A stretch of DNA of 64,000 nucleotides from a virus, in IMG/VR virus record IMGVR_UViG_3300046737_000169, positions 1 to 64,000 of that record, one strand, 5' to 3'. Shown here piece by piece: positions 16,101 to 55,225 of this stretch. Numbering within the stretch: position 1 is the first letter of the stretch; each line of letters begins with the position of its first letter. Position numbers and translations under genes: made by a program. The notes under the pieces are model-generated. The model made no database searches, was not told where the DNA came from, and saw only the letters and a list, made by a program, of their open reading frames with translations.

Positions 16101-19100
16101 CGCCAAGGCATACCCTGACATGCGCGCGATCGAGCGCATGGCCGAGACCGAGGACGCCAGCCTCCTCAACGTGACCAAGGGGATGCTCTTCTCGGCACCC
16201 AAGGTTGCCATCTTCCAGGATCTGGTTGACCGCGGCGAGCGCTTCGATCTCGGCATTGGCCAGGACATCATCGACGTACTCAACATCCTCGATCAGATCT
16301 CGCGCGAGGGCAGCAGCATTCCGGAATGGAAAGCCCAGCAGAGCATGTTCGGGCGCGATCCGTTCCTGATCCGGCTCCTCGACATCGTCTCGGAGAACAC
16401 CAGATCGGCCAGGAGAATCTCCGATGTCTTCATAGCCTACGCGGAAGTAGCCGATGCGGCCGGCTCTCCCAAGCAGGAGACGATGTTCGGCCCGCCGGAG
16501 ATTCCCGGCAAGTTGGAGATACTGGAGACTGCGCATGAACGGGCAAAAGAGCAATGGGCGGCCAAGCCTAAACGGCGAGACCCGGCGACCGGCAAACCCA
16601 TCGAAGAAGGCGGGCCCGAGGAACAGGCGAAACCCGCAAGTGATGGAGTGGCTAAAGGACCGGATGAAGACGTACGACCCGAAGTACTTCGGGAAGGACC
16701 AGCCAAACCAGGAGCCCCCGGCGCCCAGCAGCCTGGAGGAGTAGAAAAAGGAAAAGGCGTACGCCGCCGGGATCGGCGGCGAGCTATAGACGCCGATGGC
16801 AAGTGGCAGGATGACACCCTCGCCGATATCCCCGGATTGACCGCGCAGGCAACGTTCAAAGAGCCAGGGGTAAGCGGCGTCGTCTGGGTGAACTACGACG
16901 GGATGCGCGTAGTGGAAGCCGCGCTGAACGAGCCGCCGCTGAACGGCATCGCACTTGACGACGTGGGCGTGGTCGACCTCATGTCGGCGCTGGAAGCGCG
17001 CCTCGCCGAAGACGGCCTGTACGAGGAAGAGCGTGCCAAGCTCCAGGAGTTTCACGACCTACTGAGCAAGCACCGCGAGAAGGTAGGGCCCGGCGCCGGT
17101 GTCGAGATCGTCATGGCCGATCCCACGGTGAATGCAGACTTCATTGGGACGGCCCGCGAAGAGAAGCTGCACGCCGCCCAGCGTCAGGCCAAGCTCTCGG
17201 ACGAGACCATCGAAGACCTGATGCTTGAGCCGGAGTTCCACGAGGCATGGGGATGGCTTGAGGATCACGGCTATCCTGATATTGACGCCAAGGGCGCATT
17301 TGAAGAGATCACCGCCAAGGTGCTCGCCGGCCAGGCAATCGGGCTCACCGAGGCCCAACGCATCAAGGTTGCCAAAGCCTACCGCAATGCGCTGATCGCG
17401 GCGCATGGCGCCGAGGCTATCGTTTTATTCCGATACATCAAGTCAGGTGAAGTGAAGGAGACGTTCCGTGGCAGAGAAGCAAAAGAGGAAGGTGCTGGAC
17501 GCGCCGCCGGAGTTCAGTCGGAAGGCGGTGTCGAACTTCAACGCGGCCCAACTGGCGGCCGCGAGGGCGAAGGAGAAGGGGGAGGACGAGGACGCGGCGT
17601 TCGAGAAGTCGCTGAAAGCGAGTTGGGCGGAAAGCGCGGGGAGCAAACCAAAATCGAATTAGAGGAGCAGCCCGACGACCGGGCGATCCTCCAGGGCGAG
17701 CGTCTGACCGCAGGCTTCAACGCTCCGCTCACGCCGGAAGAGAAGCGCGCCAAGCTCAAGCCCGCCAAGGTCGAGCAGACGAGTATGTTCGGCGGCGAGG
17801 AAGAGCCCGCCGAGCGCCAGGGCCGGCTGTTCGCCAAGCGCCAGCATGAGTTCGAGGCGCCGGGGCGCCTGGTCACCTCGAAGACAGCCGAGGAGTTCGG
17901 CTCCACCGACATCCTGATGCCCGGCGAGGGCTTCCGTTTCCCCGAGGCGGTGAAGCGGGCCGCCTCGCTGATCAGGAAGTACCCAGGCTTCCGCGGCAAA
18001 GGGCTCGCCAATCCCCAGGCGGTCATCGACGACTTCGTCAAGCAGATCCGCGAGAACCTGGTCTGGCTCCACGACAAGTACCGGGAGCAGCACGGCGATC
18101 TGATCAAGCGCGCCAAGCTCTGGTACGACGGCGGGCGCAAGATCGCCGAAGGCTTCGCCAAGGAGGCCGGCGTCAAGCCTCACCAGTCCGCCGCGGTCAT
18201 CGCCGTCCTCTCGCCGAAAAAAGACTGGTTCATGAACGTGGACCTGGCGCGGCGCATTCATCAGTTCATGGGCATCGCCGACACCGTGAAGTGGTCCGAC
18301 AAGATGGACGCCGGGTATCGGGCCATGCAGAAATCCAAGGCCAGGAGCGATGCCAGTTCCATCAAGAAGGCCGCTGCGAAAGGGAAGGTCTTCACTCCCA
18401 GCAAGACACTCCCTAACGCCTACCGGCGGATTCGCGGGAAGGCTTTCAGCGAGATCACCAACGCGCAGGACCGGGCCTACTATCTGCGCATGTGGGACGA
18501 GGGCCACAATAGCCGGGACTTCAATGTCCTGACGCCCGAGGGCGAGTCGCGCGGCGTGGCGCGCAACAAGAAGGACACCGCCAACTCGAAGGTGGTCTGG
18601 GCCGGGTACGACGCGATCCGGAAGGCCATGTCGGTTCTCGAGGACGGTTCGGTGGAGAACATCAGCAAGCGCCTGGGCAACCGGCACAAGGTGCGCTCGT
18701 TCTACAACAACATCCTCGATCCCAACTCGAAGAACCTCCACGTCACCATCGACACCCATGCGGTGTCGGCCGGGCTGCTGCGGCCGCTTGGCGAGAGCGA
18801 CCCGGAGGTCAAGCACAACCTGGGCGCGCTCTCGGTGGTAACCGGCGAGGCTCCGACCTACGGCCTGTTCGCCGAAGGCACCAGGGACGCAGCCAAGGAC
18901 CGCGATCTGATCGCCCGCGAGATGCAGTCGATTACCTGGGAGGCGGTGCGCGGCCTGTTTTCCGGCGGTTTCAAGAACGACGCCAACAGAAAAACGCTTG
19001 CGGCGCTCTGGCGGGACGTTGCGCAAGGTAAAATAACGGCTGATGAAGCGAGAGAGCAAATCTTCAAGCTCGCGGGAGGCATTGATCGACCAGCTTGGGC

Positions 19101-22100
19101 AGATCGACTCCCCGATTTTGGAGGACATGATCGAGGAGGGCGCGCCGCTGACGCGCGCGGAGTACCTGGCGAGGGCGTACCCGGAGCAAGACCCGGAGGA
19201 GCCGATGGACTCCGAGCTAGAGGCCGAGATGCCGGCGCTGTTCGTACACCCGGACCTAAGGAAAGATCTCGGCCTGGACGACAGCGAAGCGTAAGAGGCG
19301 AGCCGGTCCCCACCGGCAAGACGGTCGAGGCCCAGACCCACGCCGCCACCGGCGGCAGATTCCCAGACATCATCCGCTTCTCCGATGACCTGAAGAGGGC
19401 GATGGATGGCCTCGTCTTCCACAGCGAAAGCAAAGCGGACCGGAAGGCCGGCAAGCTCGCGGCTGGTTTTAAAACCGGGACGTGGTACATCAACCGGCGC
19501 GGGCTGAGCCTGCTCGCCAAATGGACAGGCTCCGACATGGTCGCGGGAAGCTCGTTCCCGGCCAGTACGGTCCCCCTTCTCATCAAGGTAATCGACGAGG
19601 ATATTGCGTGGATACAGGCCCGCAAGCCGCTCACCCCGCAGGGCCTCGCGGAGATAACCAGGCTCCGCGACCGGCTGGAAGCGTGGGAGAAACTCCCGAA
19701 GGCGACGCCGGACGAGTCGGTGAACTTCTCCTTCTTTGAGCAGGGCGAAAAACGGCACCCTGCCATGCGCGCGACGATCTCCGAGGAGGCGATACATGGC
19801 TTCCAGCGCCTGGCGGCACTCAAGGACGCAACCATCGACGCCCTGATGGATACCGACCTGTTCAAGCGGGCCAAGCAGACGCTCCAGAGGAACGGTTTGT
19901 ACGCCGGCAAAAACAACCGTTCGGTCCTCATGGAAATCACCGCGAAGATCCTGGCGGCCGATCCGGATTACGCCCCCCATATTCCCGAGTTGTTCCGCCT
20001 GCATATCGTCAAAGCCTACCGGGATGCGATCGTTGCCGAGCACGGCGAGGACGGGATCGTTGTTTTCCGGTACATCAAAAAAGGCAAGGAGAAGGATGTC
20101 TTCCAGGGGCGGATGCAACCGCCCATGCCCACCAGACCCGGTGCGCCTACGACCGGGCCGCGGGCACCGCCGCCGCCGCCACGGCCGTCTCCAACCGCTC
20201 AGCCGGTCTGGACGCCCACGGGCAGGGCGACGCAGGCGCCCTTCGACTTCACCAAGAAAGATCCTTACGCGGGCACTACGCCCTCGCCCACGGCCAAGCC
20301 GAGTACTTCGCCCACGCGCAAGCCGGTGCAGCTTCCGCTGTTCCAGCAACTGAAGAAGGCTGGCCTGTTCGCCAGGATTGTCGAAGCGGGCAGGCGGGCG
20401 GACGAGCGGCTCCGCAAGGCCGGCATCTACTCCGGCGCCACGCTGAGCGCCAACCGGTTCCTCGATCCGAAAGTCATCCGCGACATGGCGATCTCGATCG
20501 CCGGCTCGGTTGCTCAGGGCGTCATCGATGCGAGGAACTTCACCTCGTCGATCACCGATAAGTTCGGCAGCGGCGCCCGGCGCGTAGCTCGTCAGGTGTA
20601 CCGCCGCGCGCAGGGGCAGATGAGGCACGCCGCCTCGACCGGGACGCTGAACGCACGCACGCTCGGACCCAATGCCGTGCAGGCCGCCTCGATCGGCGTG
20701 CCGCCTCCCACGACGGCGGTCGCCACCACCACGCCGCAGCAGCAGGCCGCGGCCGCCCTGGATCAGCGCGAGAAGGAAATCTGGGAGCGGATGATGCCGG
20801 CCACCAAGACCGGCGAAGACAGCCTCCTTGAGAAGGGCAGGAAAGGCTGGCAGAGCTTCAAAGCCTTCTTCGACCGGCAGTACTTCCACCTGGCTCACGG
20901 CGCCAGGTTCGCCGAGCTCCGGCAGCGCCTCAACTTCGTGGCCAAGAGCCAGGGCACGTCCCAGCACAAAGCGGCCCAGGCCATCATCGATCAACTCGAG
21001 AAGCTCGACGAGAAGGAGTACATCCAGTTTTTGAAGGTGGTGGTCTACAACGACATGTGGGCGCGCGTCATGCAGCAGACCGCCGAGGGCACGCCGGTGC
21101 TCGACAAGGATCTGTGGTGGGGCATCAAGGACAAGCACGAGCTAGCCAATGTGCGGGCGAAGGTGCGCGCCGATGCCAGGGCCAATCCCAAGGTGACCGC
21201 CGCGCTCGATATGCGCCAGCAGATGTGGCCCAACATTCGCAAGGAATACATCGCCGCCATGAAGAAGGCCGGCGTCGACGTATCGAAGAGCATCAAGCGC
21301 AAAGACTACTTCCGCCATCGCGTCATGAAGCACCAGGATGCCAAGATGGCGGGCAAGGGCGGCGGCTCGCGCTTCAAGCTGCCTACCGCGCGCGGCTGGC
21401 TGAAGAAGGCCCAGGTCAACATCCACGACTACTCGCTCGACTACATCCGCTCGGAGTTTGAAGTCCTCAACGAGATGATGTACGACACCGCACGGGCCAA
21501 ATTTATCGGCTGGCTGAAGGACGAGAGCGGACACAACATCGACAAGCAACTCATGCGCCAGGCGGCGGCGCACAACAAGGCCGTCATCATGCCGACCTTC
21601 GCGCGGATGGCGCGCTACTACAACCGCAAGAACCGCGGCCGCGGCGTCTCGCTGATGACCGCCGAGTCGATGTACCAGAAGATGATGCGGCTCAAGCCGC
21701 GCGATCCAAGCTGGCGTAAGCGCCTCACCATGCGCCTGGCCGGCGCCGAGTATGTGGGGAGCCTGGAGAAGGCGCTCAATACGTTCGCCAAGGACACCCA
21801 CGACATCTACCGGGCCAACGATAAGGACCACTTCTACCTGGCGGCCACGATCCCTGACGCGCTGGCGCGGGCGATCGCCGCCAACGGCACCGGCCAGGTG
21901 CTCGACACCCAACTGAAGAAGATCCTGGCCAAGGGCCAGCGCCAGGGGCAGATGGTGCTCCCCAAGGAAGTGGTCAAGACCCTGCAGGAGTTCATGCAGG
22001 GGCCGACGAGCGATGTCGGCAAATTCGTCGACTCCGTTTCCAGGTGGCCTCTCAACAAGTGGAAGCAACTCAAACTGATTCATCCGGCAGGCGTCGTCAA

Positions 22101-23772
22101 GTACAACCTGCGCAACCTGTCGGGCGATCTGGAGCGCGTGCTGGCCGTCAATCCGCACGCCGTTGCGCATGTCGGCAAGTCCATGAGCGACATCTACGAT
22201 TTCGTGAAGACCGGCAAGATGCCGAGTCCCGAGTTCCAGGAATGGTGGGAACGCGGAGGCATGGACTCCAACCTCCAGGAGGCCGAGGCCGGCGACATCG
22301 ACCGCCTCGCCAAGCTGAAACGCAAGCTGGTCGATCCCGATGTCGGTGCGGCGAAGAAGACGCTGCGCTTGGGCGTGAGGGGATGGAACGCTCTGTGGAG
22401 AGGGCTCCGCACCGGCACCAACATGCGGGAAGGCATCCTGCGCTATGCCACTTTCCTCGAGTACCAGCAGCAGATCGCGGCGAGCACCTCTGGGCGCCCG
22501 AAGAACTTTGGCGCCTCGCGCCGCGAAGAAGTGATGGCGCTCAGGAGCCGCAACGATCGCGCCTACAAACTGTCGAACGACCTGATGCTCGCCTACGACG
22601 AGGTGGGCGTGGCCGGCCAGGAACTCCGGAAAAGGTGGATTCCCTTCTGGAGCTTCCAGGAGCAGAACGCGCGGGCCTACAAGCGGATCATGGTCAACGC
22701 CTGGAAGGACGGCCGGACCTCCGCGTTGATCGGACGAGCCATCGTGGGGAAGACCGCGCGGGTAGGCGCCTACACGATGATGAAGCTCGCCTCGACCTCG
22801 ATGCGGCTGCTGATGCTCAAGACGCTCACCGAGCTCTGGAACAACTACGCCTACGACGACGAGGAAGAGGATCTGCCGGAGAGCGTGCGCAAGTCGACCC
22901 ATATCATCCTGGGCCGAGACTCGAACGGCAAGGTGCGAGTGTTCTCGCGCCTGGGCACCATCGACGATCTGCTTGAGTGGGGCGGCCTGGATGCGGCGCC
23001 GTTCTATGCGCGCGAGTACATGAACGGGCGCATGGACTTCGCCGATCTGAAGGACCAGATGATCGGCCATCTCCTGCCCAGGCTGCGCGGCGGCCTTCCG
23101 GTTCCCAAGGCGGCCTTCAACAAGGTCTGGCAGAGCATCACTCCGTACATCAAAACGACGGCGGAACTGGGCTATGGCAAGACCTCCTATCCGGACTTCT
23201 TCAAACAGCGAGAGATTCGGGACACCGGCGAGTACATCGCCCGCGAGTTGAACCTGCTTGCCCCCTACAAAGGGTTGATCAAAAAGCCGCAGCCGTCGTT
23301 CTGGACGATGGACAAACTGTCCGAGTTCATGATCTACAAGTACGATCCGAACGAGACGCAGTACAACTCGTTCCGCTACGACAAGGTGGCCAAGTGGGCG
23401 GTGGAGAACGGGCACGACACCTCGGGCGGCGGCATGTCGCTGAAGAAGTCGGCCGAGGCGCTCTACGATATCCGCATGGCGATCCGCTACGACGACCAGA
23501 GCGCGCTGGCCGCCGGGATACAAGCCTACAAGGATGCGGACGGCACCAAGCAGAACCTGAAGAAATCAATCCAGCGCCTGCATCCGCTGGGCTCGCTCAC
23601 CAACAAGAAGCTGAAGAAGGAGTTCGAGGACTCCCTCACCGCCCAGGAAAAACGGCAACTCGAAAAGGCTGTAGCATTCTGGGAAGAGCAATTTCATTCC
23701 AAGGAAACCGAAGTGATGGATGTCGCGCAGTCCGAAGGTCTGCCGGCCAAGAAGAAGAAGGGGAAGAAATAA
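13132..23772 (+). CDS. Large polyvalent virion-ejected protein (DdrB-like ParB domain, two zincin-like domains, DUF7178/HhH-like domain, LPD38-like C-terminus)
   Basis: 3546 aa; NYPQEYQPRD..DGAPIV..DGTVITRNH (ddrB-ParB-like); two EExxH..EITAK.LA domains; IAVLSP..W..N / KVRSFYNNI / VTIDTHA / MQSITW; WIPFWSF..LPE..R C-terminal domain. Confidence 0.85.
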   Translation: MADNPFAKYGGVLVADGEDENPFAKYGGVKVVGPPRPHVEPTPTGPAPAPWITADKVPGAELTGLPGVQKVPAPYDLGGPGRGPGAAPPISPLQQPTMRAATPRSVPDYLSTEGITGLPYPGSGGVVPPEPYAPPLPKDAGLGERVWRGVTDEGWTQVQDSIASGTQVVGRNIDRAFGPGMIRNAGDRLAQYGEELESGREYTPPAVNLEDWLAKPDRSVGDLATMVIEGGARTLPNMLATVGAGMLVPGGGAVLSYLMNSGEIFDSQVKEGIHPEQAAKNAAVWGVPATMLDYFVPGDIIKAIKANPKLPAELKKTLYKRVVDFAKGTGTEMFTEGAQNVNQDLAMSQATGKPMDWRKTGVGAAEAALTAAGPGAVGHVMESVGERTPALDDVLGGGELADYMRKRQEAGFQPLEQPQPEDDGGTPPPPGAPPGAPPGAPPGAPPGAPPPGAGPFPPLHTQPPPTEPGTIPTTEPGAPDQTLPPETTPGTGEAPPPPPPVLQGEELYQAATAHVADIAGIEAPELAAALGVTPKDAQAVLERMVQEGAFTPKVLKNGGISYVNLRLKQERGGISPVTSPIQKGQAEPPPPPGPGVQQEPPPLPTQPPAPPQEDVSRGTEEDVPPPEVRTEEPKQPVPDEAAAKRQAFIRNRYANKPESWYGTLEGEGPRPEWNDFVERFARSDYGADLQEEAKRAIQEFRGLEPPSDSIQQGKEPGEQGTAPKPPALERAPPPAPAAPEEKEPIPSSPEGRPVPPEHPNAKREKVFTTAGREVPIRYEIREADDLVNSFEPNYPQEYQPRDTERIGTEQRVKQRQSDMRPELFAESPLASDGAPIVLPDGTVITRNHGSEALKRNYREGSPKTAEYKQWLADNAARFNYSPEQIAGMQQPILVRVMEGNVPVSEVIEFAGEANAPSVAKMSEAEIAQHMAKRMTGAVMEAFHPTEDGKPNIEFVRELIKGLTVEDQATFIDRNGKLSQEGAKIVRNVIFAKAYPDMRAIERMAETEDASLLNVTKGMLFSAPKVAIFQDLVDRGERFDLGIGQDIIDVLNILDQISREGSSIPEWKAQQSMFGRDPFLIRLLDIVSENTRSARRISDVFIAYAEVADAAGSPKQETMFGPPEIPGKLEILETAHERAKEQWAAKPKRRDPATGKPIEEGGPEEQAKPASDGVAKGPDEDVRPEVLREGPAKPGAPGAQQPGGVEKGKGVRRRDRRRAIDADGKWQDDTLADIPGLTAQATFKEPGVSGVVWVNYDGMRVVEAALNEPPLNGIALDDVGVVDLMSALEARLAEDGLYEEERAKLQEFHDLLSKHREKVGPGAGVEIVMADPTVNADFIGTAREEKLHAAQRQAKLSDETIEDLMLEPEFHEAWGWLEDHGYPDIDAKGAFEEITAKVLAGQAIGLTEAQRIKVAKAYRNALIAAHGAEAIVLFRYIKSGEVKETFRGREAKEEGAGRAAGVQSEGGVELQRGPTGGREGEGEGGGRGRGVREVAESELGGKRGEQTKIELEEQPDDRAILQGERLTAGFNAPLTPEEKRAKLKPAKVEQTSMFGGEEEPAERQGRLFAKRQHEFEAPGRLVTSKTAEEFGSTDILMPGEGFRFPEAVKRAASLIRKYPGFRGKGLANPQAVIDDFVKQIRENLVWLHDKYREQHGDLIKRAKLWYDGGRKIAEGFAKEAGVKPHQSAAVIAVLSPKKDWFMNVDLARRIHQFMGIADTVKWSDKMDAGYRAMQKSKARSDASSIKKAAAKGKVFTPSKTLPNAYRRIRGKAFSEITNAQDRAYYLRMWDEGHNSRDFNVLTPEGESRGVARNKKDTANSKVVWAGYDAIRKAMSVLEDGSVENISKRLGNRHKVRSFYNNILDPNSKNLHVTIDTHAVSAGLLRPLGESDPEVKHNLGALSVVTGEAPTYGLFAEGTRDAAKDRDLIAREMQSITWEAVRGLFSGGFKNDANRKTLAALWRDVAQGKITADEAREQIFKLAGGIDRPAWADRLPDFGGHDRGGRAADARGVPGEGVPGARPGGADGLRARGRDAGAVRTPGPKERSRPGRQRSVRGEPVPTGKTVEAQTHAATGGRFPDIIRFSDDLKRAMDGLVFHSESKADRKAGKLAAGFKTGTWYINRRGLSLLAKWTGSDMVAGSSFPASTVPLLIKVIDEDIAWIQARKPLTPQGLAEITRLRDRLEAWEKLPKATPDESVNFSFFEQGEKRHPAMRATISEEAIHGFQRLAALKDATIDALMDTDLFKRAKQTLQRNGLYAGKNNRSVLMEITAKILAADPDYAPHIPELFRLHIVKAYRDAIVAEHGEDGIVVFRYIKKGKEKDVFQGRMQPPMPTRPGAPTTGPRAPPPPPRPSPTAQPVWTPTGRATQAPFDFTKKDPYAGTTPSPTAKPSTSPTRKPVQLPLFQQLKKAGLFARIVEAGRRADERLRKAGIYSGATLSANRFLDPKVIRDMAISIAGSVAQGVIDARNFTSSITDKFGSGARRVARQVYRRAQGQMRHAASTGTLNARTLGPNAVQAASIGVPPPTTAVATTTPQQQAAAALDQREKEIWERMMPATKTGEDSLLEKGRKGWQSFKAFFDRQYFHLAHGARFAELRQRLNFVAKSQGTSQHKAAQAIIDQLEKLDEKEYIQFLKVVVYNDMWARVMQQTAEGTPVLDKDLWWGIKDKHELANVRAKVRADARANPKVTAALDMRQQMWPNIRKEYIAAMKKAGVDVSKSIKRKDYFRHRVMKHQDAKMAGKGGGSRFKLPTARGWLKKAQVNIHDYSLDYIRSEFEVLNEMMYDTARAKFIGWLKDESGHNIDKQLMRQAAAHNKAVIMPTFARMARYYNRKNRGRGVSLMTAESMYQKMMRLKPRDPSWRKRLTMRLAGAEYVGSLEKALNTFAKDTHDIYRANDKDHFYLAATIPDALARAIAANGTGQVLDTQLKKILAKGQRQGQMVLPKEVVKTLQEFMQGPTSDVGKFVDSVSRWPLNKWKQLKLIHPAGVVKYNLRNLSGDLERVLAVNPHAVAHVGKSMSDIYDFVKTGKMPSPEFQEWWERGGMDSNLQEAEAGDIDRLAKLKRKLVDPDVGAAKKTLRLGVRGWNALWRGLRTGTNMREGILRYATFLEYQQQIAASTSGRPKNFGASRREEVMALRSRNDRAYKLSNDLMLAYDEVGVAGQELRKRWIPFWSFQEQNARAYKRIMVNAWKDGRTSALIGRAIVGKTARVGAYTMMKLASTSMRLLMLKTLTELWNNYAYDDEEEDLPESVRKSTHIILGRDSNGKVRVFSRLGTIDDLLEWGGLDAAPFYAREYMNGRMDFADLKDQMIGHLLPRLRGGLPVPKAAFNKVWQSITPYIKTTAELGYGKTSYPDFFKQREIRDTGEYIARELNLLAPYKGLIKKPQPSFWTMDKLSEFMIYKYDPNETQYNSFRYDKVAKWAVENGHDTSGGGMSLKKSAEALYDIRMAIRYDDQSALAAGIQAYKDADGTKQNLKKSIQRLHPLGSLTNKKLKKEFEDSLTAQEKRQLEKAVAFWEEQFHSKETEVMDVAQSEGLPAKKKKGKK
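14973..14988. promoter_or_regulatory. parS-like centromere site embedded in CDS
   Basis: CGTTTCCCGTGGAACA vs consensus TGTTTCACGTGAAACA; encodes the tell-tale DVSRGT peptide in a Pro-rich linker. Confidence 0.55.
16535..16744 (+). CDS. Nested +1-frame gene 1 (69 aa) after the ddrB-ParB domain
   Basis: GGAG 7 nt before ATG; host frame loses GC3 bias here; product ends VMEWLKDRMKTYDPKYFGKDQP.. Confidence 0.45.
   Translation: MNGQKSNGRPSLNGETRRPANPSKKAGPRNRRNPQVMEWLKDRMKTYDPKYFGKDQPNQEPPAPSSLEE
17468..17662 (+). CDS. Nested +1-frame gene 2 (64 aa) after the first zincin-like domain
   Basis: AAGGAG 7 nt before GTG; helical protein-like product; host frame becomes G/R/E low-complexity. Confidence 0.6.
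   Translation: MAEKQKRKVLDAPPEFSRKAVSNFNAAQLAAARAKEKGEDEDAAFEKSLKASWAESAGSKPKSN
19043..19294 (+). CDS. Nested +1-frame gene 3 (83 aa, acidic) after the DUF7178-like domain
   Basis: TAAAAT -10 box 8 nt upstream; product PILEDMIEEGAPLTRAEYLARAYPEQDPEEPMDSELEAEMP; host frame is an R/G shadow. Confidence 0.7.
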   Translation: MKRESKSSSSREALIDQLGQIDSPILEDMIEEGAPLTRAEYLARAYPEQDPEEPMDSELEAEMPALFVHPDLRKDLGLDDSEA

Positions 23773-34200: not shown

Positions 34201-34901
34201 ACGCCCTGGATACCTGGCGCGCGAGCCTCCCAGACACTCCCGAGGAGCGGCTTCCCAAGCCGCTCAAGTTAGTAATACCTGGCGCTCCGCGTACGAAAAA
34301 GAACAGCCCGGTCCTGATTACTGGAATGACCGATGCCTGGCTGAAGGACTTAGTCATGGACTTCCAACGGGAGTTAGTACCGATCCGGTTCCAGGAGGAG
34401 GCAACCGTCCTCGAATGGCTCCGCAACCGCGAGACGGCCCTGCCGCACCCGAAGTTACTCCCGTCCCAGGCTTACCGGGACTGGGAAGCGGCTGCGATCA
34501 AAGGTGTCTTGCCGGAGCTAGAACCGCTGCGGAAGTATTTCCCGATTAACTACTCCTGTCACTTACTCGCCAAGGTATACCGCGAGCGCGATGCCGGCGA
34601 TTGGTGCGGCTACATGCAGGGCATTGGTGACTTCCTGGAGGACATTGGCGTCCTCGAAGACGACGTGCTCCTGCGCTCGTTCGATGGCAGCCGGCTGCTC
34701 AAAGATGCGGAGAATCCCAGGATCGAATTATGGCTCTTGCCGTATTACCAGGAAACCGGCATGGGGCTGTTCGAGCTACCAGCCAGGGAATGGGCCCAGC
34801 ATGAGGAGCCGGAGCCCGAGGAAGTCGTCTCGGCCGACGAGGAGCAGCGCAGGACCGGGTCCATCCTATACAGCATCTACGGCGGGCGCCGGCATGGATA
34901 G
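34197..34901 (+). CDS. rusA: RusA-like Holliday junction resolvase
   Basis: IPGAPRTKKNS..RDAGD..DFL...GVLEDD..KDAENPRIEL. Confidence 0.7.
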   Translation: MNALDTWRASLPDTPEERLPKPLKLVIPGAPRTKKNSPVLITGMTDAWLKDLVMDFQRELVPIRFQEEATVLEWLRNRETALPHPKLLPSQAYRDWEAAAIKGVLPELEPLRKYFPINYSCHLLAKVYRERDAGDWCGYMQGIGDFLEDIGVLEDDVLLRSFDGSRLLKDAENPRIELWLLPYYQETGMGLFELPAREWAQHEEPEPEEVVSADEEQRRTGSILYSIYGGRRHG

Positions 34902-35100
34902 GCCAAAGATCATCACCGACCCGACAATCCCCGCGAACATGATCTACTTCATGCCTGACCGCGTGATCGAACAGCTAGCGGACTTAGCTCTCGCGAAGTT
35001 CTGGGGCCGGATCAGCAACGAACAGTTCGAGCGCCGCATGGACGGGATCGTCGAAGAGTACAAGCGCCATATAGGCGTCGTCAGGAACATCGGTGGATAG
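34894..35100 (+). CDS. Hypothetical protein
   Basis: 68 aa, coupled to neighbours. Confidence 0.55.
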   Translation: MDRPKIITDPTIPANMIYFMPDRVIEQLADLALAKFWGRISNEQFERRMDGIVEEYKRHIGVVRNIGG

Positions 35101-35251
35101 CAACTGGAAGGACGCCACCGTGGACGAGATCGCGCAGGAGCTTGCCGCTGGGTTTGTTTATCTAGCGAGCAGGATTCGGCAGGAAGATACTGGCGAGGAC
35201 ATCGAGAGTTGTATTCGCCAAATGACAAAAGCGTGGAATAAAGGAAAATGA
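35093..35251 (+). CDS. Hypothetical protein (52 aa, not in ORF track)
   Basis: GTG..MDSNWKDATVDEIAQELAAG..KGK*; overlaps both neighbours. Confidence 0.55.
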   Translation: MDSNWKDATVDEIAQELAAGFVYLASRIRQEDTGEDIESCIRQMTKAWNKGK

Positions 35252-35643
35252 AAGAACTTACTCAGCACATAGTCGAAGGTGATTCGGCGAATCACCAACT
35301 GAAGATCCAGGTGATGGACGAGCCAGGCGCCGGCGGTGCGTGCCACCGCTACGAAGTTACTGGCTTTAACACCGAGACTAACAAGTCCAAGGAAGGGGCC
35401 GCGTCGAACGGCGTTGTGATCCTATTCCAGAACGGGCCCATCAAGGAGGTTGGCGTCAATGGCGTCACCCATGAGGCGCTCCTGACCATAGTGATCGATC
35501 GCCTCGTAGCGTTTCAGGAAGGGCCGTTCTACTGCTCTGAGAATCAGTTGGCTCTGCAGCACGCAGCGCACTGCCTGAACGCGCTGCAGCTTCGCACCAA
35601 GGCTCGCATCGCCCGCGGCGTGGAAGGGACTCACGAGAAATAA
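35248..35643 (+). CDS. tad1: Tad1-like anti-defence signalling-molecule sponge
   Basis: GAGGACHRY..FQNGP..GV...LL.IV.DRL..FQEGPF..EN..AL.H..R...RI.RGVEGT matches the Tad1 family pattern. Confidence 0.75.
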   Translation: MKELTQHIVEGDSANHQLKIQVMDEPGAGGACHRYEVTGFNTETNKSKEGAASNGVVILFQNGPIKEVGVNGVTHEALLTIVIDRLVAFQEGPFYCSENQLALQHAAHCLNALQLRTKARIARGVEGTHEK

Positions 35644-35644
35644 C

Positions 35645-35854
35645 ATGGAACCTATCATGCAGTTTTTCGCCTACACACATCTGCCGCTTCACTTGCAGGA
35701 TGTAAGTGAACCGTTCTGCGCGCTGGCCCAGACGATTGTGGCAAGTCTACCGAGGAACCCGGAGCGTACCGTAGCTCTGCGAAAGCTCCTCGAAGCAAAG
35801 GACGCCGCCGTACGTGCCAAGCTCTACAAAGAAAACGAAGCTCCCCAAGGCTAA
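35645..35854 (+). CDS. Helical-hairpin protein, Acb2/Tad1-hairpin-like
   Basis: FFAYTHLPLHLQDVSEPF..LPRNPERTVALRKLLEAKDAAVRA. Confidence 0.6.
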   Translation: MEPIMQFFAYTHLPLHLQDVSEPFCALAQTIVASLPRNPERTVALRKLLEAKDAAVRAKLYKENEAPQG

Positions 35855-36182
35855 GAGCGAGCCCGAGGAACGGTTCGCGATCGCCTGGCGCACGCTGGGC
35901 GGTCAGAAGCCCGAGCGCGAGTACCGGTTCACGCCTGACCGGAAGTGGCGCTTTGACTTCGCCTGGCCGGAGGTCCGGATTGCAGTCGAGATCGAGGGCG
36001 GCATCAACGAGGGGAAGCACCGCGGCTACCACATGCGAACAAAAGGGTTCCTCAAAGATGCCGAGAAGTATAATCGCGCCAGCACTTTAGGCTGGCGTAT
36101 ATACAGATTTGCCCCGAGCCAGATCCAGCCGGCGGCTCTCGAGGAAATCATCTCGGAGATCAGAAAGTCAGGGCGAGGTTGA
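35814..36182 (+). CDS. PD-(D/E)xK-type endonuclease
   Basis: EYRFTPDRKWRFDFAWPEVRIAVEIEGG..D.EKYN.A..LGWR. Confidence 0.75.
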   Translation: MPSSTKKTKLPKAKSEPEERFAIAWRTLGGQKPEREYRFTPDRKWRFDFAWPEVRIAVEIEGGINEGKHRGYHMRTKGFLKDAEKYNRASTLGWRIYRFAPSQIQPAALEEIISEIRKSGRG

Positions 36183-36183
36183 C

Positions 36184-36396
36184 ATGGACGACAAAGAGAT
36201 ACTTGAGCGGGTCCGCGAGGCTATAGCCTGCCTGGACGAGGCCCAGCTTGATCTGCCGATGAACACGCGCGAGCAGCGCAAGCTCCACACCCGCATCCAG
36301 GACGCTGGCGATCGGCTCGTGGAGGTCAGGGAAGAACTCCAGGTCCGGATCGGCGCGCAGGAAAACTTGAAGCGTGTGCTTGAGCGTAAATCGTGA
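36184..36396 (+). CDS. Small coiled-coil protein
   Basis: GAGGT RBS; 70 aa. Confidence 0.6.
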   Translation: MDDKEILERVREAIACLDEAQLDLPMNTREQRKLHTRIQDAGDRLVEVREELQVRIGAQENLKRVLERKS

Positions 36397-36404
36397 GAAA
36401 ACCC

Positions 36405-36552
36405 TTGCGAAACGCGCATCTGGTTTGATAAAGTTACTCCGTTCGACGGAAGCGGCGAGGCTTGATCACCCCGCCGTACGAACGGATTAGCCGGGAGCAG
36501 CCAGGGGGACTCCTATACCCCTGGCTCCCCGGAAGCCCAAATAGGAGGGGCC
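36405..36552 (+). promoter_or_regulatory. Promoter and structured 5' leader of the replication gene
   Basis: TTGCGA-18-TAAAGT; hairpins 36438-36486 and 36491-36532; loop CTCCTAT is complementary to SD ATAGGAG. Confidence 0.6.
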
Positions 36553-37491
36553 ATGCGAACCCGCATTCTGAAACCTGGATTCTTCAAGAACGAAACCCTC
36601 GCCGAGCTTGGCTCACACGCCATGCTCCTCTACCAAGGACTCTGGCTGCTAGCTGATCGGGACGGTAGATTGGAGGACCGGCCCAAACGCATCAGGGCCG
36701 AGGTCTTCCCTTACTTCGCAGATCAAAACGTAAACGGGCTTCTTGAATCCCTTGCGAAAGCCGGGTTTATCAAACGCTATGTTGTAGCGGGGAAGGGGTT
36801 CATCTCGATCCCAACGTGGCTCAAACACCAAACTCCTCACCACAAGGAAGCGCCATCAGAGATCCCCCCGAATGAGGGCGGGATTGATGCTTGCGTCAAT
36901 CTTGAGTCAATCTTGAACCAAGATCAAGCCGAGCTTGAACCGAGCATGGATGAAGAGTCCATCTTGAACGGCGCGATCAAGAAGCCTCATTCCTCTATTT
37001 CTATTTCTGTTCCTGTTTCTGTTTCTATTCCTGTTTCTATTCCTGTTTCAGATTCAGTTCCTGTTGCCGCCGCTGAAGCGGCGGGGGAGATTGTTTCCTC
37101 AAAGTTTGTTCTTCTTTCTCCTGATACGGATAAGCCTTCAGTATCAGTAACCCAGCACAAACACAAACCCGTGTACCCAAACGGATTCCAGAACTACCTC
37201 ACGGTCTTCTATGCTGGCGGAAAACTCCTGAGCCCTGACGATGAAAACAAAGCCTTCAGGGCATGGAAAAAGCTGCCACTTGCCGGTCAAATTGCAGCGG
37301 GCGAGAACGCTATTGAGATCGTCAAGGACCGCGAACCAAAATACATTCCCCTCCCGGCCAACCATCTACGAGACAAGCCGTGGACCCGCACCGGACCTGG
37401 GCGCATGGTCCCGCTGCCACCCAAGAGCGCCCGAGAGGCAAACCAACTCGAAGCCGAGCGGCTATTCGATGAACGGAGGAAAACGAGATGA
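36553..37491 (+). CDS. Phage replication initiator
   Basis: MRTRILKPGFFKNE.L..LLYQGLW..ADRDGR..IRAEVFP N-terminus; internal repeats; KYIPLPANHL C-domain. Confidence 0.8.
   Translation: MRTRILKPGFFKNETLAELGSHAMLLYQGLWLLADRDGRLEDRPKRIRAEVFPYFADQNVNGLLESLAKAGFIKRYVVAGKGFISIPTWLKHQTPHHKEAPSEIPPNEGGIDACVNLESILNQDQAELEPSMDEESILNGAIKKPHSSISISVPVSVSIPVSIPVSDSVPVAAAEAAGEIVSSKFVLLSPDTDKPSVSVTQHKHKPVYPNGFQNYLTVFYAGGKLLSPDDENKAFRAWKKLPLAGQIAAGENAIEIVKDREPKYIPLPANHLRDKPWTRTGPGRMVPLPPKSAREANQLEAERLFDERRKTR
36889..37066. repeat. Putative replication origin (iterons plus AT-rich hexamer tract)
   Basis: Repeated (T/G)CTTGA(A/G) units at 36900, 36911, 36933, 36962; TTTCTA/TTCCTG/TTTCTG hexamers at 36990-37066. 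Confidence 0.55.
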
Positions 37492-39794: not shown

Positions 39795-40429
39795 GAGGGT
39801 AGCCACTTCTCGAACCGGGCCACGGCCTTGTGCAGCGCCTCGATCCCGCCCTTCTCGGTCCTCGCCACGGCTTCCAAAATGGGAAGTCCACTGTCGATCG
39901 AAGCCTGAACCTCAGCCCTGGTAGCGTCCCGGCCCTCGCAGATCCAGCCCACTTGCTCCGGCTCGCCCATCTGGATGAGCGGGCCCGTATCGGTGCGGAA
40001 GATCTCGTACTCGCGCGTCATCCAGAGCATGGCCACGCCTGGGTTGCGCGTGATCCCCATGCCGCCCACGTTCTCGCGCATCTGCTCGTTGTTGATGAGC
40101 TCGTCCTCGCGGCGCACCATCTTGGGGTTCGACAGGAACGGGCAGTTCTGCGCCGACCAGACCGCGCACTCCGCGTGCGACGGCGGCTCGCTCGAAGTCC
40201 GGTTGACGCCGCACATGGGACCGGCGACAAAGACTTTCCACACGCCCAGGCGTTCGCCGCAGACCCAGCACAGACGCTGCTTGATGGCGCTGATGAACTT
40301 CTGGTTGTCCATCGCCCTGAACTCGGGCTTGCCGTTGACATAGGCGACGAACCAAGGAATGGGAATGCCCTTGTCGGTGAGCTTCAGGGAGCGCATACGC
40401 GCGGGGAGAGTTTCCATGTTGATTGTCAT
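39791..40429 (-). CDS. Conserved Cys/His phage protein
   Basis: IPWFV..RLCWVCG..GPMC.VNR.S.EPPSH.EC..CPFL; ATGA-coupled to the recombinase. Confidence 0.7.
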   Translation of the reverse strand: MTINMETLPARMRSLKLTDKGIPIPWFVAYVNGKPEFRAMDNQKFISAIKQRLCWVCGERLGVWKVFVAGPMCGVNRTSSEPPSHAECAVWSAQNCPFLSNPKMVRREDELINNEQMRENVGGMGITRNPGVAMLWMTREYEIFRTDTGPLIQMGEPEQVGWICEGRDATRAEVQASIDSGLPILEAVARTEKGGIEALHKAVARFEKWLPS

Positions 40430-41241
40430 AGCTTGATCGCGTCGCACGCCGGGTTGGCAAGGTCCACGGTGCTTTTGAGGTAGCGGTCCGTGACCGCAAT
40501 GGAGGAGTGCCCCAAGGTCAACTGGATCTGCACAAGATCCGCTTTCCCTTTTAAGGCGAGCCGGGCGAACGTCCTGCGCAAATCGTGCGGCGCTAACTGG
40601 GGCACTCCGATCCGTTGGCCCGCCGCCTTTACGATCGCGTGAATGTGGTCTGCCGTCAACCCTTCCGCGCTCGCCTTCTCCTTCCAGACCCGCCGGAGCA
40701 CCGGCCCGGTGGAGACCTGAGCCGCCTGCAGCCACTCATGAAGCGCCAGGATGGCCCAGGAGGGCAGCGGGACCGTCCGGACCCTGCGCCCCTTCCCTAC
40801 CAGGTCGAGGAGCACCGTGCGGCCGTCGAGCGTCTGTACGTGGGCAACCTGGAGGCTGGCGAGTTCAGACCGCCGGAGCGCGGCGCCGGTCAGGAGGGCT
40901 AACAGGCAACGGTCACGCGCCCCGGCCAGTCCCGGCCCCGGCTCGAGAAGATTGCCCAACTGTCCGAGCGAGAGCCATGTGCCCATCTTCACACCCCGGA
41001 CGGGGAGCGAGCGGATCGCCTCGATCGCCATCATCTCGGCGGCGGGCGCGTTCTGCCGCGCCAGGTGCTTGAGCGCGGCCAGGTGCAGGTTCACCGTCGC
41101 GGGCGCGTATCCGCCGTCGCGCCGCTCGGCCACGTAGGTCTGGATGCCGGCGGCGGTAAGCTCTCGATCGTAGTTGCGCCAGATGGCGGCGTATGCCTCG
41201 CGCGATCGCTTCGCGTTGAGGGTTTCAAGACTCGTGTTCAT
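40426..41241 (-). CDS. Tyrosine recombinase/integrase (XerC/D-like)
   Basis: LRRSEL, GKGRRVR, HDLRRTFA, LGHSS..TDRY catalytic residues; short, no arm-binding domain. Confidence 0.9.
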   Translation of the reverse strand: MNTSLETLNAKRSREAYAAIWRNYDRELTAAGIQTYVAERRDGGYAPATVNLHLAALKHLARQNAPAAEMMAIEAIRSLPVRGVKMGTWLSLGQLGNLLEPGPGLAGARDRCLLALLTGAALRRSELASLQVAHVQTLDGRTVLLDLVGKGRRVRTVPLPSWAILALHEWLQAAQVSTGPVLRRVWKEKASAEGLTADHIHAIVKAAGQRIGVPQLAPHDLRRTFARLALKGKADLVQIQLTLGHSSIAVTDRYLKSTVDLANPACDAIKL

Positions 41242-49188: not shown

Positions 49189-49223
49189 CTTTCACCTCGC
49201 TGCGGGGAATGCCCGCTTACTAG

Positions 49224-49252
49224 ATTGTGCCAGGATCAATAGTCGCGTGCAA
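49224..49252 (-). promoter_or_regulatory. sigma70-type early promoter
   Basis: TTGCAC-17-CACAAT; contains TTGATCCTGGCA, also present at 55169-55180. Confidence 0.6.
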
Positions 49253-51253: not shown

Positions 51254-51256
51254 TGT

Positions 51257-51451
51257 CTAGTCCTCCTCATCAATGGGCTCATCGGCCCAGTAGTTCGCAT
51301 CAGTGAAAATTTCCGGCCTGTACTGGGCGCGTTTCTTCGCCTCGCACCGGCTGCACACGTAGCCGCAGGCAATGCCGCGTGCGTCATAGAGCACGTAGCG
51401 CGTCTGGCCGGAGCCGCACCCGCACGGGCGTATCGGAGGGAGCCAACTCAT
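51257..51451 (-). CDS. Small Zn-finger early protein
   Basis: CGCGSG..YDARGI....C..C..YRPEIF. Confidence 0.7.
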   Translation of the reverse strand: MSWLPPIRPCGCGSGQTRYVLYDARGIACGYVCSRCEAKKRAQYRPEIFTDANYWADEPIDEED

Positions 51452-51681
51452 GACCGGCCCCCCTTCTTTCTGGCCGCGCGTTCTTCCCGCTCGGCGCGTG
51501 CGAGCAACTTGCTGGCTAGGTCGTAAACGGCGTCATAGGGAACCGCGAGCCTGCGCCGCGTCCCCTTCAATCGCAGTTCAATATGTGATGGGTGCAACTC
51601 GACCAGGAGGGCGCGTGTGCGCCCCTGGTCCCTTTTGAGCGTCGCCGTCTCCCGGCGGACCGGCTTATCGAGGCGCGTCAT
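51448..51681 (-). CDS. Basic early protein
   Basis: MTRLDKPVRRET..RLKGTR; TAATG coupling. Confidence 0.6.
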   Translation of the reverse strand: MTRLDKPVRRETATLKRDQGRTRALLVELHPSHIELRLKGTRRRLAVPYDAVYDLASKLLARAEREERAARKKGGRS

Positions 51682-51848
51682 TACAGCGGCTCCGATTCGA
51701 TCAGGATTACATCGTTGACCCGGAGCCCGGTCACGCGCCGCGTTTCGCCGTCCGTCTCCACGTACACCGGGCGCGAGCCCGCGCCCTGGACCTGAGCGGT
51801 CCAGAGCAGCTTGGCTAGCTCCGCGCCTGAGAGCGTGTCGATTCTCAC
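51681..51848 (-). CDS. Early-region protein (55 aa, not in ORF track)
   Basis: GTG RIDTLSGAELAKLLW..; coupled at both ends. Confidence 0.5.
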   Translation of the reverse strand: MRIDTLSGAELAKLLWTAQVQGAGSRPVYVETDGETRRVTGLRVNDVILIESEPL

Positions 51849-52102
51849 CGTACACCGTCCGGCAGTACAGTCACCTCACCGGCGAGCGTGCCGGGGTAGC
51901 GGTCGCCCGCCGCCATGCGCCCGCCTGGGGACACCGTCACCAGTCCGCGCGCAATGTCCAGCGCGTGATGTACGCTCGGGCCTGCCTCGAAACGGAACCG
52001 CTGCGAGCCGCCGCCGTACCTGGGTTCAAAAGTTTTCTCGACCGTGACGCCCCAACGGCCATCAATCAGGTCAAGATGAACGGACACGATTTGGTTTTCC
52101 AT
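51845..52102 (-). CDS. Early-region hypothetical protein
   Basis: GAGGTG RBS. Confidence 0.6.
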   Translation of the reverse strand: MENQIVSVHLDLIDGRWGVTVEKTFEPRYGGGSQRFRFEAGPSVHHALDIARGLVTVSPGGRMAAGDRYPGTLAGEVTVLPDGVR

Positions 52103-52115
52103 CGCTTCACCTCTT

Positions 52116-52295
52116 CTAGAACAACTTCGGCTGCGGGTCCGATACCGGAGCCGCGAACAAACCGCCCTGCTCGACGCGAGCGCGCCGCAGCTTGCGGCGC
52201 TTCTCTTCCGGCGTCAAGGGACAGTCAAAACCAGCCGTCAACTGCTCGCCCAGGAGGCGCGCTTGGTCGTCCGGCTGCTCTTCTATCTCGATCAC
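52116..52295 (-). CDS. 59-aa stand-alone paralogue of a polyvalent-protein segment with two QxxLF motifs (not in ORF track)
   Basis: MIEIEEQPDDQARLLGEQLTAGFDCPLTPEEKRRKLRRARVEQGGLFAAPVSDPQPKLF; GAGGTG RBS; 32/46 identical to the segment encoded at 17653-17790. Confidence 0.85.
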   Translation of the reverse strand: MIEIEEQPDDQARLLGEQLTAGFDCPLTPEEKRRKLRRARVEQGGLFAAPVSDPQPKLF

Positions 52296-52310
52296 GATTC
52301 ACCTCTCTTT

Positions 52311-52341
52311 GACTATACGCCAGTAACAACGATTTGGTTAC
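52311..52341 (-). promoter_or_regulatory. ECF-sigma-like promoter, copy A
   Basis: GTAACCAAA-N13-CGTATAGTC; same boxes and spacing at 55195-55225. Confidence 0.65.
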
Positions 52342-52360
52342 TAAATCTTGCGAAATATTT

Positions 52361-52729
52361 TCAGGACTCGGCTTCAACCGTGTGGCGCTCGACTTCCTCC
52401 CCCACAAACGGCTCGCGCGGGTCCGCGTGGACCGTGACCGGCCCGCCGCCGCGCCCGTCGTCGTAGGTCAGCGACACCGCGCCCAGGCACCGGCGCAGGC
52501 CCTCGGCTGCCGCCTCCTGGTCGTTGATCCGCCGCAGGACGATGTTGTACACCTCGGACTCGCCGTCCGAGAGCGTGTGCTTTTCCACCGCCAACCGGCT
52601 GAGGTAGTCCCCGGCCTCGTCTTCGATGTAGATCATTTCCAGCGGAGTGGTGCGGGCGAGCAGTTCTAGCTCGCGCGCAAGGTCCGCCGCCGTCATCACC
52701 ACGGCTGTATGCGTTCTGGTCATCATCAC
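52361..52729 (-). CDS. Early-region protein
   Basis: After repeat copy 5; TLSDG.SEVYNIVL motif. Confidence 0.6.
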   Translation of the reverse strand: MMMTRTHTAVVMTAADLARELELLARTTPLEMIYIEDEAGDYLSRLAVEKHTLSDGESEVYNIVLRRINDQEAAAEGLRRCLGAVSLTYDDGRGGGPVTVHADPREPFVGEEVERHTVEAES

Positions 52730-53713: not shown

Positions 53714-53896
53714 CTATTCGCCCGCCCGCGCCCAGAAGCGCACCGTACCCATGCGGTCCAACCACTTGATTTGCGCCCGGTAGGACTCGCCGTCCGCCAG
53801 ATACGCCGCGACGTTGAACAGGATCGACGCGCCCACCCCAGGCGCAACCGTGTCGATCCGCTGCAAGATGATCCCGTATGGGCTGAGGCGCGCCAT
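53714..53896 (-). CDS. Early-region hypothetical protein
   Basis: TAATG coupling. Confidence 0.55.
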   Translation of the reverse strand: MARLSPYGIILQRIDTVAPGVGASILFNVAAYLADGESYRAQIKWLDRMGTVRFWARAGE

Positions 53897-54510
53897 TAGA
53901 AGAGCCTCCCTTGATCGCCCGTCTCGACCGGCGCAGCCTGGGCCGCCTCGGCGAGCTTGACCGCCTCCGCGCCCGCCTTCGAGAGCACCCGCGCCAAGAA
54001 CCCCTCGATCCGGGGAATCTCTTTGTTGAGGTACGCCACCTTGCGGTCGATATCGTCCTGGCACCGCTTGACCCAGACCGCGCCGCCCTCGCCGCGCCGG
54101 TCCAAGCTGCGCTCATGGTCGCCGTTGCGCTCCACGTCGTACACCGGATGAAACAGCCAACTGGACTCGGTGAAAATATCCTTCCCGCCCGCGTCCGCGA
54201 TGAAATAGAGCCCGCTCCCGAAATACTCGCGCCCGCGCGGCATGGCCTCCACCGGCCCGGTGAGAATCTCCAGGTAGTTCCGGTATTTCACCAGCAACTT
54301 CGCATTCTTGCGGTAGAGCGTGCCGAGCGTGGGCGTCGCCTGGAGTATCCGGTCGATACAATCGAGCCCGTACTGCTGAACCAAGCCGTCCTTGTACGTC
54401 ACGCGCGCCACATGCTTAATGCCCTGGCTGCACCGGTCGCAGCACTGAACCGGGGACGCCGTGTAGTAGTACACCGAGCGCACCGCCGTCGTTCCTAAAA
54501 TCTGAGTCAT
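53896..54510 (-). CDS. Zn-binding early protein ending in QGRLF
   Basis: CDRCSQGIKH..YGLDC; C-terminal clamp-binding-like motif. Confidence 0.7.
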   Translation of the reverse strand: MTQILGTTAVRSVYYYTASPVQCCDRCSQGIKHVARVTYKDGLVQQYGLDCIDRILQATPTLGTLYRKNAKLLVKYRNYLEILTGPVEAMPRGREYFGSGLYFIADAGGKDIFTESSWLFHPVYDVERNGDHERSLDRRGEGGAVWVKRCQDDIDRKVAYLNKEIPRIEGFLARVLSKAGAEAVKLAEAAQAAPVETGDQGRLF

Positions 54511-54837: not shown

Positions 54838-55137
54838 CTACTTCACCTCCGCAGCCGCTGCCGCCGCCCACGCGCCGTTGCCCGCCTTCGCCTTCTTCGC
54901 CGCCGCCGCCTTCTCACACTCGGCGTCGGTAGTGCAAGCGGCGCGAGTGCACCTCTTGCACTCGCGCAACCCGTGCGCCTCCGCTACCGAACGCTCAGAA
55001 GTGAGCTTGTGAGCCTTCGCGCCCTTCCGGACACTGCACGTCGCGCTCAAGTGATACACCTTCGAGGACGGCCCGAAATGAACCGCCTCCCCGAACATCA
55101 TGCTCGCCAAGAGCAACCCCAAAATTATCGACTTCAT
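54838..55137 (-). CDS. Secreted Ada-like metal-binding small protein
   Basis: Signal peptide; KVYHLSATC..A.AHGLRECKRC. Confidence 0.65.
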   Translation of the reverse strand: MKSIILGLLLASMMFGEAVHFGPSSKVYHLSATCSVRKGAKAHKLTSERSVAEAHGLRECKRCTRAACTTDAECEKAAAAKKAKAGNGAWAAAAAAEVK

Positions 55138-55194
55138 CTCTGTCTTCTCACCTCGATCTAGAATTTTCTGCCAGGATCAAACGATCCTACATAC

Positions 55195-55225
55195 GACTAT
55201 ACGACAATGCGAAGGTTTTGGTTAC
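55195..55225 (-). promoter_or_regulatory. ECF-sigma-like promoter, copy B (head of early array)
   Basis: GTAACCAAA-N13-CGTATAGTC. Confidence 0.65.

Follow-up and report, generated by a model that had tools for sequence, protein, structure and literature searches.

A 59-Residue Gene in the Leftward Operon of an Uncultured Soil Phage Is an Old Copy of a Giant-Protein Module Bearing Clamp-Motif-Like Peptides

The window analysed here, a 64,000-nucleotide stretch of IMG/VR virus record IMGVR_UViG_3300046737_000169, contains a minus-strand ORF of 59 codons (52116-52295) that, on the evidence of its sequence, is a real, selected gene and an old paralogue of a module lying within the giant protein of the same phage. 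The interpretation favoured here, which is tentative and in our estimate falls a little short of probable, is that the encoded 59-aa protein would be a small, disordered binder of the host clamp DnaN.

Genome Context and Relatives of the Phage

The phage is uncultured and temperate and comes from soil, and the 59-aa ORF is an accessory gene of its leftward, probably early, operon. The genome, of 73,764 bp with 62.7% G+C, is rated 100% complete and encodes an integrase (40426-41241), a replication (Rep) initiator (36553-37491), and a ParB-like protein. None of the Pfam families for DnaN, Pol A, Pol B, and Pol III alpha gave a match at E<=1 in the 74-kb genome, so the phage presumably replicates through the host replisome. 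Between about 55137 and 38634 the minus strand carries one small ORFan after another, and the block closes with the integrase and an HNH protein. This arrangement is interpreted as an operon of the early-left type, and the position of the 59-aa gene within it suggests that the gene is expressed early. Nine neighbouring early proteins compared with Pfam and PHROGs were ORFans, save one that matched a PHROG of unknown function.

Relatives of the phage were scarce in the collections searched. No cultured relative was found, and even the major capsid protein had no match in 50,697 GenBank phage records; among GenBank phages neither the region, nor the 59-aa protein, nor the module segment of a relative was matched by megablast or tblastn; tblastn with the module against plasmids also gave no match. 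When viral contigs were scanned with the 59-aa protein as a single query nothing was found, and a scan with the alignment found five giant-protein loci only; in metagenome contigs, only two of these five viral giant-protein contigs were recovered. A protein scan of genome contigs for the module found nothing, and of 38 matches to a degenerate DNA pattern in the same contigs two were real, both in Acidobacteriota MAGs. The search for a host with the capsid protein gave one match only, 27% identical, among 401 Acidobacteriota genomes. On the chromosome of an Acidobacteriaceae MAG (L023:1111-1836, minus strand), MacB/FtsX ABC-transporter genes flank a 241-aa ORF that contains the module in full, with its three motifs. 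This ORF is probably a stranded fragment of a giant phage gene, and it hints at Acidobacteriota as hosts of the wider module family.

The closest complete relative, G001, has a syntenic genome of 73,209 bp whose structural proteins are 65-94% identical to those of the phage studied here. In G001 the module is found within a giant protein of 3701 aa and there is no free-standing copy; the block 51257-52729, which holds five small ORFan genes, is absent, and the genes that flank it are adjacent. The 59-aa gene is therefore accessory cargo, dispensable for the lineage. An initial sequence-only reading of this DNA had proposed that the module is delivered twice, first injected with the virion and then expressed early. 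Given the single, giant-protein copy in G001, such double delivery does not hold as a conserved strategy and is kept here as a lineage-specific possibility. A second, weak module match in G001 (E 0.015) falls within a 275-aa ORF, in antisense, and was dismissed as chance.

The 59-aa Gene and Its Counterpart in the Giant Protein

The ORF starts with GTG at 52295 and stops with TAG at 52116-52118, and a longer form is ruled out by an in-frame TGA two codons 5' of the GTG. In BLASTP, the 59-aa protein aligned without gaps to residues 1508-1555 of the giant protein, with 32/48 residues identical and 39/48 similar (E 1e-21), which bears out the earlier observation that the gene copies an internal segment of that protein. 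The matching internal copy comprises residues 1508-1567 and is encoded at 17653-17832 on the plus strand; it thus lies on the strand opposite to the 59-aa gene, with 34.5 kb between them. A six-frame search of the whole genome found these two copies of the module only (E 7.5e-37 and 5.4e-18). Two Qxx[LM]F peptides stand at matching places in both copies, QGGLF and QPKLF in the 59-aa protein and QTSMF and QGRLF in the giant protein, as had also been noticed at the outset. In the 59-aa gene, the first of these (motif B, residues 43-47) is encoded at 52155-52169 and the second (motif C, the last five residues) at 52119-52133, while a predicted amphipathic helix formed by residues 8-20 is encoded at 52236-52274, all on the minus strand.

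Comparison of the two copies pointed to a long separate history. At the DNA level the 59-aa gene is 70% identical to the giant-protein copy and many of the differences are synonymous; over 48 codons, the Nei-Gojobori method gave a dS of 0.85, a dN of 0.25, and a dN/dS of 0.30. The DNA identity, the low dN/dS, and a dS near saturation together indicate an old duplicate whose amino-acid sequence has been kept by selection. The G+C content at the three codon positions of the ORF (0.72/0.42/0.80) is like that of the accepted genes of the phage. Maximum-likelihood analysis of 31 module sequences gave the 59-aa protein a short terminal branch (0.29, where other free-standing forms have 1.14-1.18), indicating that the protein has not been drifting. 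The coding reality of the ORF, which the sequence-only reading had assumed, is thus upheld by the dN/dS, the coding-type GC3, the ribosome-binding site, the intact frame, and the short branch.

Contigs from other samples bear on the start of the gene. The 59-aa gene is present unchanged in one soil run of another study. A freshwater-sediment contig (run X3) is about 96% identical to the phage over 53157-52295 and diverges exactly at the start codon of the 59-aa gene, where a different ORF (ATG ACA AAA AAA GTG ...) stands behind the same ribosome site. Gene-precise cassette exchange operates in the early region, and such start-to-stop swapping supports 52295 as the true start of the gene. Another X3 contig lacks exactly the adjoining 64-aa gene (51255-51452), which is deleted to the base (198 nt).

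The signals in front of the gene were of unequal strength. The ribosome-binding site GAGGTGA (52299-52305, minus strand) ends three bases before the start codon; the same site precedes at least eight adjoining genes and is the usual one in this phage, so the assignment made from the sequence stands. A promoter had also been placed at 52311-52341. This stretch (minus strand), within the 65-nt spacer 5' of the 59-aa gene, carries the promoter-like motif GTAACCAAA-N14-GTATAGTC, read as TAACCA, 17 nt, and TATAGT, and a second copy is found at 55195-55225 (minus strand), in the divergent control region with which the minus-strand operon opens. The 31-nt pattern occurs exactly twice in the genome, with 0 occurrences expected from shuffles. 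However, a simple sigma-70 consensus scan did not call the site at 52311-52341. Its -10-like hexamer ends just 16 nt 5' of the start codon, so that a transcript beginning there would have a very short leader or be nearly leaderless. The earlier placing of a promoter is supported in part, and the element is described here as promoter-like. A further motif, TTGATCCTGGCA(G/C)AA..TCTAG (55150-55180 and 49215-49250, both on the minus strand), is common to the leaders of two genes, with starts at 55137 and 49188; it is situated 3' of promoter-like sequence and may serve as an operator or in some other form of regulation.

A Family of Modules in Giant Phage Proteins

A profile built from the two module copies was compared with 1.84 billion representative proteins at a threshold of E<=0.001, and 27 cluster representatives were retrieved. 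In most of them the module is internal to proteins of 1200-4000 aa; four matches are small proteins (59-76 aa, the query included) and a few are of middle size. The ddrB-like ParB domain is found in the three homologous giants tested as well as in the giant protein of this phage. Aligned with their flanking sequence, the family members follow a common order, namely S-L-F-G, a spacer of about 12 residues, a helix (D-R-D-x-L-x-G-E-R-L-T-A-Q/G-F, with the core L-x-G-E-[RQ]-L-T-A), x-x-P-L-T-x-E-E, a basic stretch, motif B, and motif C. The upstream S-L-F-G is found in 23 members, and another segment stands in its place in the subclade of this phage. Motif B consists of Q, T/G/Q/S, D/G/S/N, L/M/F, and F, its Q and F being invariant in 30/30 members. 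Motif C follows 11-14 residues after motif B and reads Q-G-x-L-F, with Q in 20/22 members and L-F in 22/22. The residue after the F of a motif is often G, D, S, or E. The 59-aa protein retains the family-invariant residues, and its AlphaFold2 model, made with the alignment, predicts helices at residues 8-20 and 29-33 and no regular structure from 34 to 59 (mean pLDDT 67).

Searches of curated resources did not place the module in any described family. There was no match in Pfam (E<=10) or PHROGs (E<=1), the best E in a profile search of PDB sequences was 7.6, which is chance, and the best score in the ESM Atlas, 0.78, is below the useful range. The module represents an undescribed family and forms a self-contained unit across an entire clade of uncultured phages. 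Of the free-standing forms in the tree, P0015 and P0023 cluster with the giants of G003 and G004, and the 59-aa protein and P0005 fall inside the clade of G000 (the phage studied here), G001, and P0003. The four free-standing forms were united in 0/200 bootstrap trees, with the reading limited by the 61 columns of the alignment, in which the starred branches alone are compatible with one origin. The free-standing forms thus appear to fall in two separate clades. Both the 59-aa protein and P0015 terminate precisely at the F of motif C, and in P0005 the F of motif B has been lost.

The Giant Protein

The giant 3546-aa protein is encoded on the plus strand at 13132-23772, between tail-spike-like and tail-fibre-like genes. 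It contains a ddrB-like ParB domain at residues 771-897 (15442-15822; Pfam PF18763, E 1.5e-25) and, about 80 residues after the module, a DUF7178 domain (18073-18273; Pfam PF23802, E 1.1e-21). These were the only two Pfam families detected even when the protein was searched as four separate segments at E<=1, and in the same four pieces about 3000 residues had no family match; the protein also lacked a detectable peptidase domain and any HExxH. The protein is large and multidomain, has a ddrB-like ParB domain, and is encoded among phage tail genes, and in these respects it fits the hallmarks of polyvalent proteins. The position of the gene suggests that the protein may be delivered with the virion.

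The internal copy of the module is placed in a linker of low hydrophobicity, with motif B (QTSMF) encoded at 17776-17790 and motif C (QGRLF) at 17818-17832. The motif scan also found extra peptides of the same form in the giant protein, these being QQSMF (16336-16350) and QETMF (16474-16488), each followed by G, and QLPLF (20329-20343), all on the plus strand like the rest of the gene. Altogether, the giant protein has five Qxx[LM]F copies in or beside linker-like stretches.

Qxx[LM]F Peptides and the Clamp-Binding Consensus

The peptides had been proposed to be related to those that bind the sliding clamp. Bacterial clamp partners share QL(S/D)LF, which is often C-terminal and tolerates variation (PMC9690074), and MuC of phage Mu has been found experimentally to bind the clamp via QHDLF and QPDLF, its family having the consensus Qx[D/E][L/M]F (PMC12867686). 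The four peptides QGGLF, QPKLF, QTSMF, and QGRLF of the two module copies fit the consensus anchors Q1, L/M4, and F5. Neither motif B nor motif C has L at position 2 in either copy, and this position is tolerant, as in MuC. At the level of the family, motif B has the same anchors and the same preference at position 3 as the clamp-binding consensus. The peptides also have the flexible or terminal placement of clamp-binding motifs, since residues 34-59 of the 59-aa protein are unstructured in the AlphaFold2 model and motif C is C-terminal. The proposed likeness to the clamp-binding consensus was therefore strengthened, the peptides being the most conserved feature of the wider family. Against clamp binding as a full account, the helix and the basic part of the module are conserved at least as well, and it offers no explanation for them.

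Counts in the giant proteins point in the same direction. Across 20 giants, 61 Qxx[LM]F peptides were observed where shuffles gave 6.7 +/- 2.6; masking the module left 22 outside it against 6.0 +/- 2.5, the maximum in 500 shuffles being 13. Reversed or permuted patterns of the motif in the giants were at background, with no enrichment. The flanks of the motifs in the giants are below the protein average in hydrophobicity. When the complex of the 59-aa protein (12-row alignment) with E. coli DnaN was predicted, the scores were 0.09 and 0.00 against a mark of 0.32, for a DnaN that may not be that of the host, and this outcome is weighed neither for nor against binding. A portal-like protein keeps IQPALFGGGD at residue 495, both in this phage (G000 66452-68713, beyond the window) and in G001 (34801-37065), and this may be a coincidence or the same tag.

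The sequence-only reading had further suggested a bivalent clamp binder. From the end of motif B to the start of motif C the gap is 7-9 residues, and by the geometry of the clamp such a gap seems too short for both clefts of one ring. That suggestion was accordingly not supported, and motifs B and C are better viewed as sites that stand in for one another or allow re-binding than as a bivalent staple.

A Second Early Protein with the Same Tail

The motif scan of the proteome showed how restricted these peptides are within the phage, with Qxx[LM]F occurring in 6 of about 116 predicted proteins. Only two of the roughly 116 end in [LM]F, the 59-aa protein and a 204-aa early protein (53896-54510, minus strand), both with Q at position -5. 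The gene of the 204-aa protein is located two genes upstream of the 59-aa gene, and its last five residues, QGRLF, are encoded at 53899-53913. Comparison showed that its 24 homologues, of about 185 aa, stop before the QGRLF tail of about 20 residues; the peptide was therefore added to the unrelated 204-aa protein in this lineage. Short linear motifs typically spread in this manner, by addition to unrelated proteins. The AlphaFold2 model of the 204-aa protein (pLDDT 92) has a beta-sheet with conserved Cys and a C-terminal helix of 50 residues, and in a Foldseek comparison of this model with the PDB there was no match at E<=0.001.

Proposed Role and Alternative Explanations

The QL[SD]LF motifs of polymerases, Hda, SocB, and phage Mu MuC occupy the cleft of the beta-clamp. 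By analogy, the 59-aa peptide, which is predicted to be mostly disordered and to consist of an amphipathic helix and a basic stretch followed by QGGLF and the C-terminal QPKLF, could plug one or both of its Qxx[LM]F peptides into the hydrophobic cleft of host DnaN, with the helix and the basic part probably adding a second contact. The protein would in this way occupy or re-route clamps early in infection. As the phage encodes neither a clamp nor a DNA polymerase, the host clamp would be both a resource for phage replication and a target for host shut-off. Several outcomes can be envisaged: the 59-aa protein could block the clients of the clamp, as SocB does and as MuC does when over-expressed, it could bring clamps to phage DNA or proteins, or it could compete with the motifs of the giant protein. 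We infer the clamp as partner from the peptides, and we infer likewise what any binding to it would bring about.

Alternatives to clamp binding should be weighed against the same evidence. The LF peptides could instead be a docking tag for some other hub, a host or phage protein, and would then act as a private address that gathers the pieces of the giant protein, the 59-aa protein, and the 204-aa protein on a single partner chosen by the phage. This explanation, which we consider rather unlikely but by no means negligible, is attractive in that the tag occurs in three unrelated contexts of one phage, that the conserved helix beside the motifs hints at a composite interface, and that a motif so short could serve a different partner with QxxLF-like peptides. 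Nevertheless, nothing clamp-like and no obvious hub is detectable by Pfam in the 74-kb genome, and the spelling of the motif, with D/S/G/N at position 3, is that of bacterial clamp-binding motifs, as is its terminal placement. An explanation from morphogenesis would have the Qxx[LM]F-G peptides as processing (cleavage) or head-targeting signals of the giant protein, and the 59-aa protein as a competitor or regulator of the protease or of packaging. The motifs do sit within or beside stretches of low hydrophobicity that link folded parts, the F is often followed by G, D, S, or E, cleavage after that F would leave a C-terminus like that of the free-standing proteins, and DdrB of P1 is cut before encapsidation (PMC5512222). 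We nonetheless regard this explanation as improbable, given that the giant protein has no detected peptidase domain or HExxH, that the C-terminal motifs of the two leftward-operon proteins have nothing to be cut from, and that the 59-aa gene belongs to the leftward operon, well away from the genes for morphogenesis.

It is also conceivable that the 59-aa ORF has no function and is a leftover of a recombination through which a copied portion of the giant gene reached the accessory region, since it is absent from G001 and belongs to a block of ORFan cassettes that are readily gained and lost. This we judge to be very improbable indeed. The frame is intact, dN/dS is low with dS near saturation, the tree branch is short and the family-invariant residues are kept; moreover, the copy spans exactly the stretch from the start of the module to the F of motif C and is equipped with a ribosome-binding site and a promoter-like motif, and comparable free-standing forms exist in another clade.

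Binding of DnaN by the 59-aa protein, the reading preferred here, can be extended to the clade as a whole, although this extension is considerably more speculative and we hold it to be doubtful. The giant, probably ejected, ddrB-ParB proteins of this clade of uncultured soil and sediment phages would be built round arrays of clamp peptides and the helical module, so that the cargo would dock on clamps or sequester them on entry; the module would have been repeatedly carved out as a mini-gene and the peptide grafted on a second early protein. The result would be a two-stage take-over of the clamp, by a virion-delivered protein and then by expressed ones. If the linker peptides of giant polyvalent proteins work in this way, the host replication clamp would be the docking site of injected phage cargo, or else its first target. 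If the proposal is true, the natural 59-residue peptide would offer a compact clamp ligand for study. A helix with two or three Q-x-x-L-F peptides is, in addition, an easily recognised module for annotating the thousands of residues that make up 'hypothetical' giant phage proteins.

Comparison with Known Systems

Among described systems, MuC/Mor of phage Mu resembles the proposal in that clamp binding is needed for function and over-expression is toxic via titration of the clamp (PMC12867686). However, MuC is a folded DNA-binding transcription factor, a late activator with motifs at both ends, whereas the 59-aa protein has no detectable DNA-binding fold, carries tandem motifs 7 residues apart, is a copy of a giant-protein module, and shares no sequence homology with MuC. 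A model for a clamp-blocking role is provided by the SocB toxin of Caulobacter, a small protein whose motif of the usual kind fills the cleft and which blocks replication elongation (PMC9690074). SocB differs from the 59-aa protein in being a toxin encoded on the chromosome and in having an antitoxin-like partner, a pairing not seen here, and the two proteins are not homologous.

The polyvalent proteins described by Iyer et al. (2017, PMC5512222) are like the giant protein of this phage in their hallmark ddrB-like ParB domain, and the paper also describes solo genes for their domains within the same elements. Unlike those solo domains, the module described here lies outside the Pfam-detected domains and appears to be a disordered, motif-bearing peptide rather than an enzyme domain. 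The word clamp has 0 occurrences in the text of PMC5512222, and a full-text literature search for 'polyvalent protein' together with 'sliding clamp' returned one unrelated overview only. Phage proteins with clamp-binding motifs are thus already known from MuC/Mor, and so are solo polyvalent domains as a principle (PMC5512222). What appears to be new is the module family itself, its siting in giant ddrB-ParB proteins with extra copies of the peptide, its apparent recurrent release as a mini-gene, and the graft of the peptide on a second protein.
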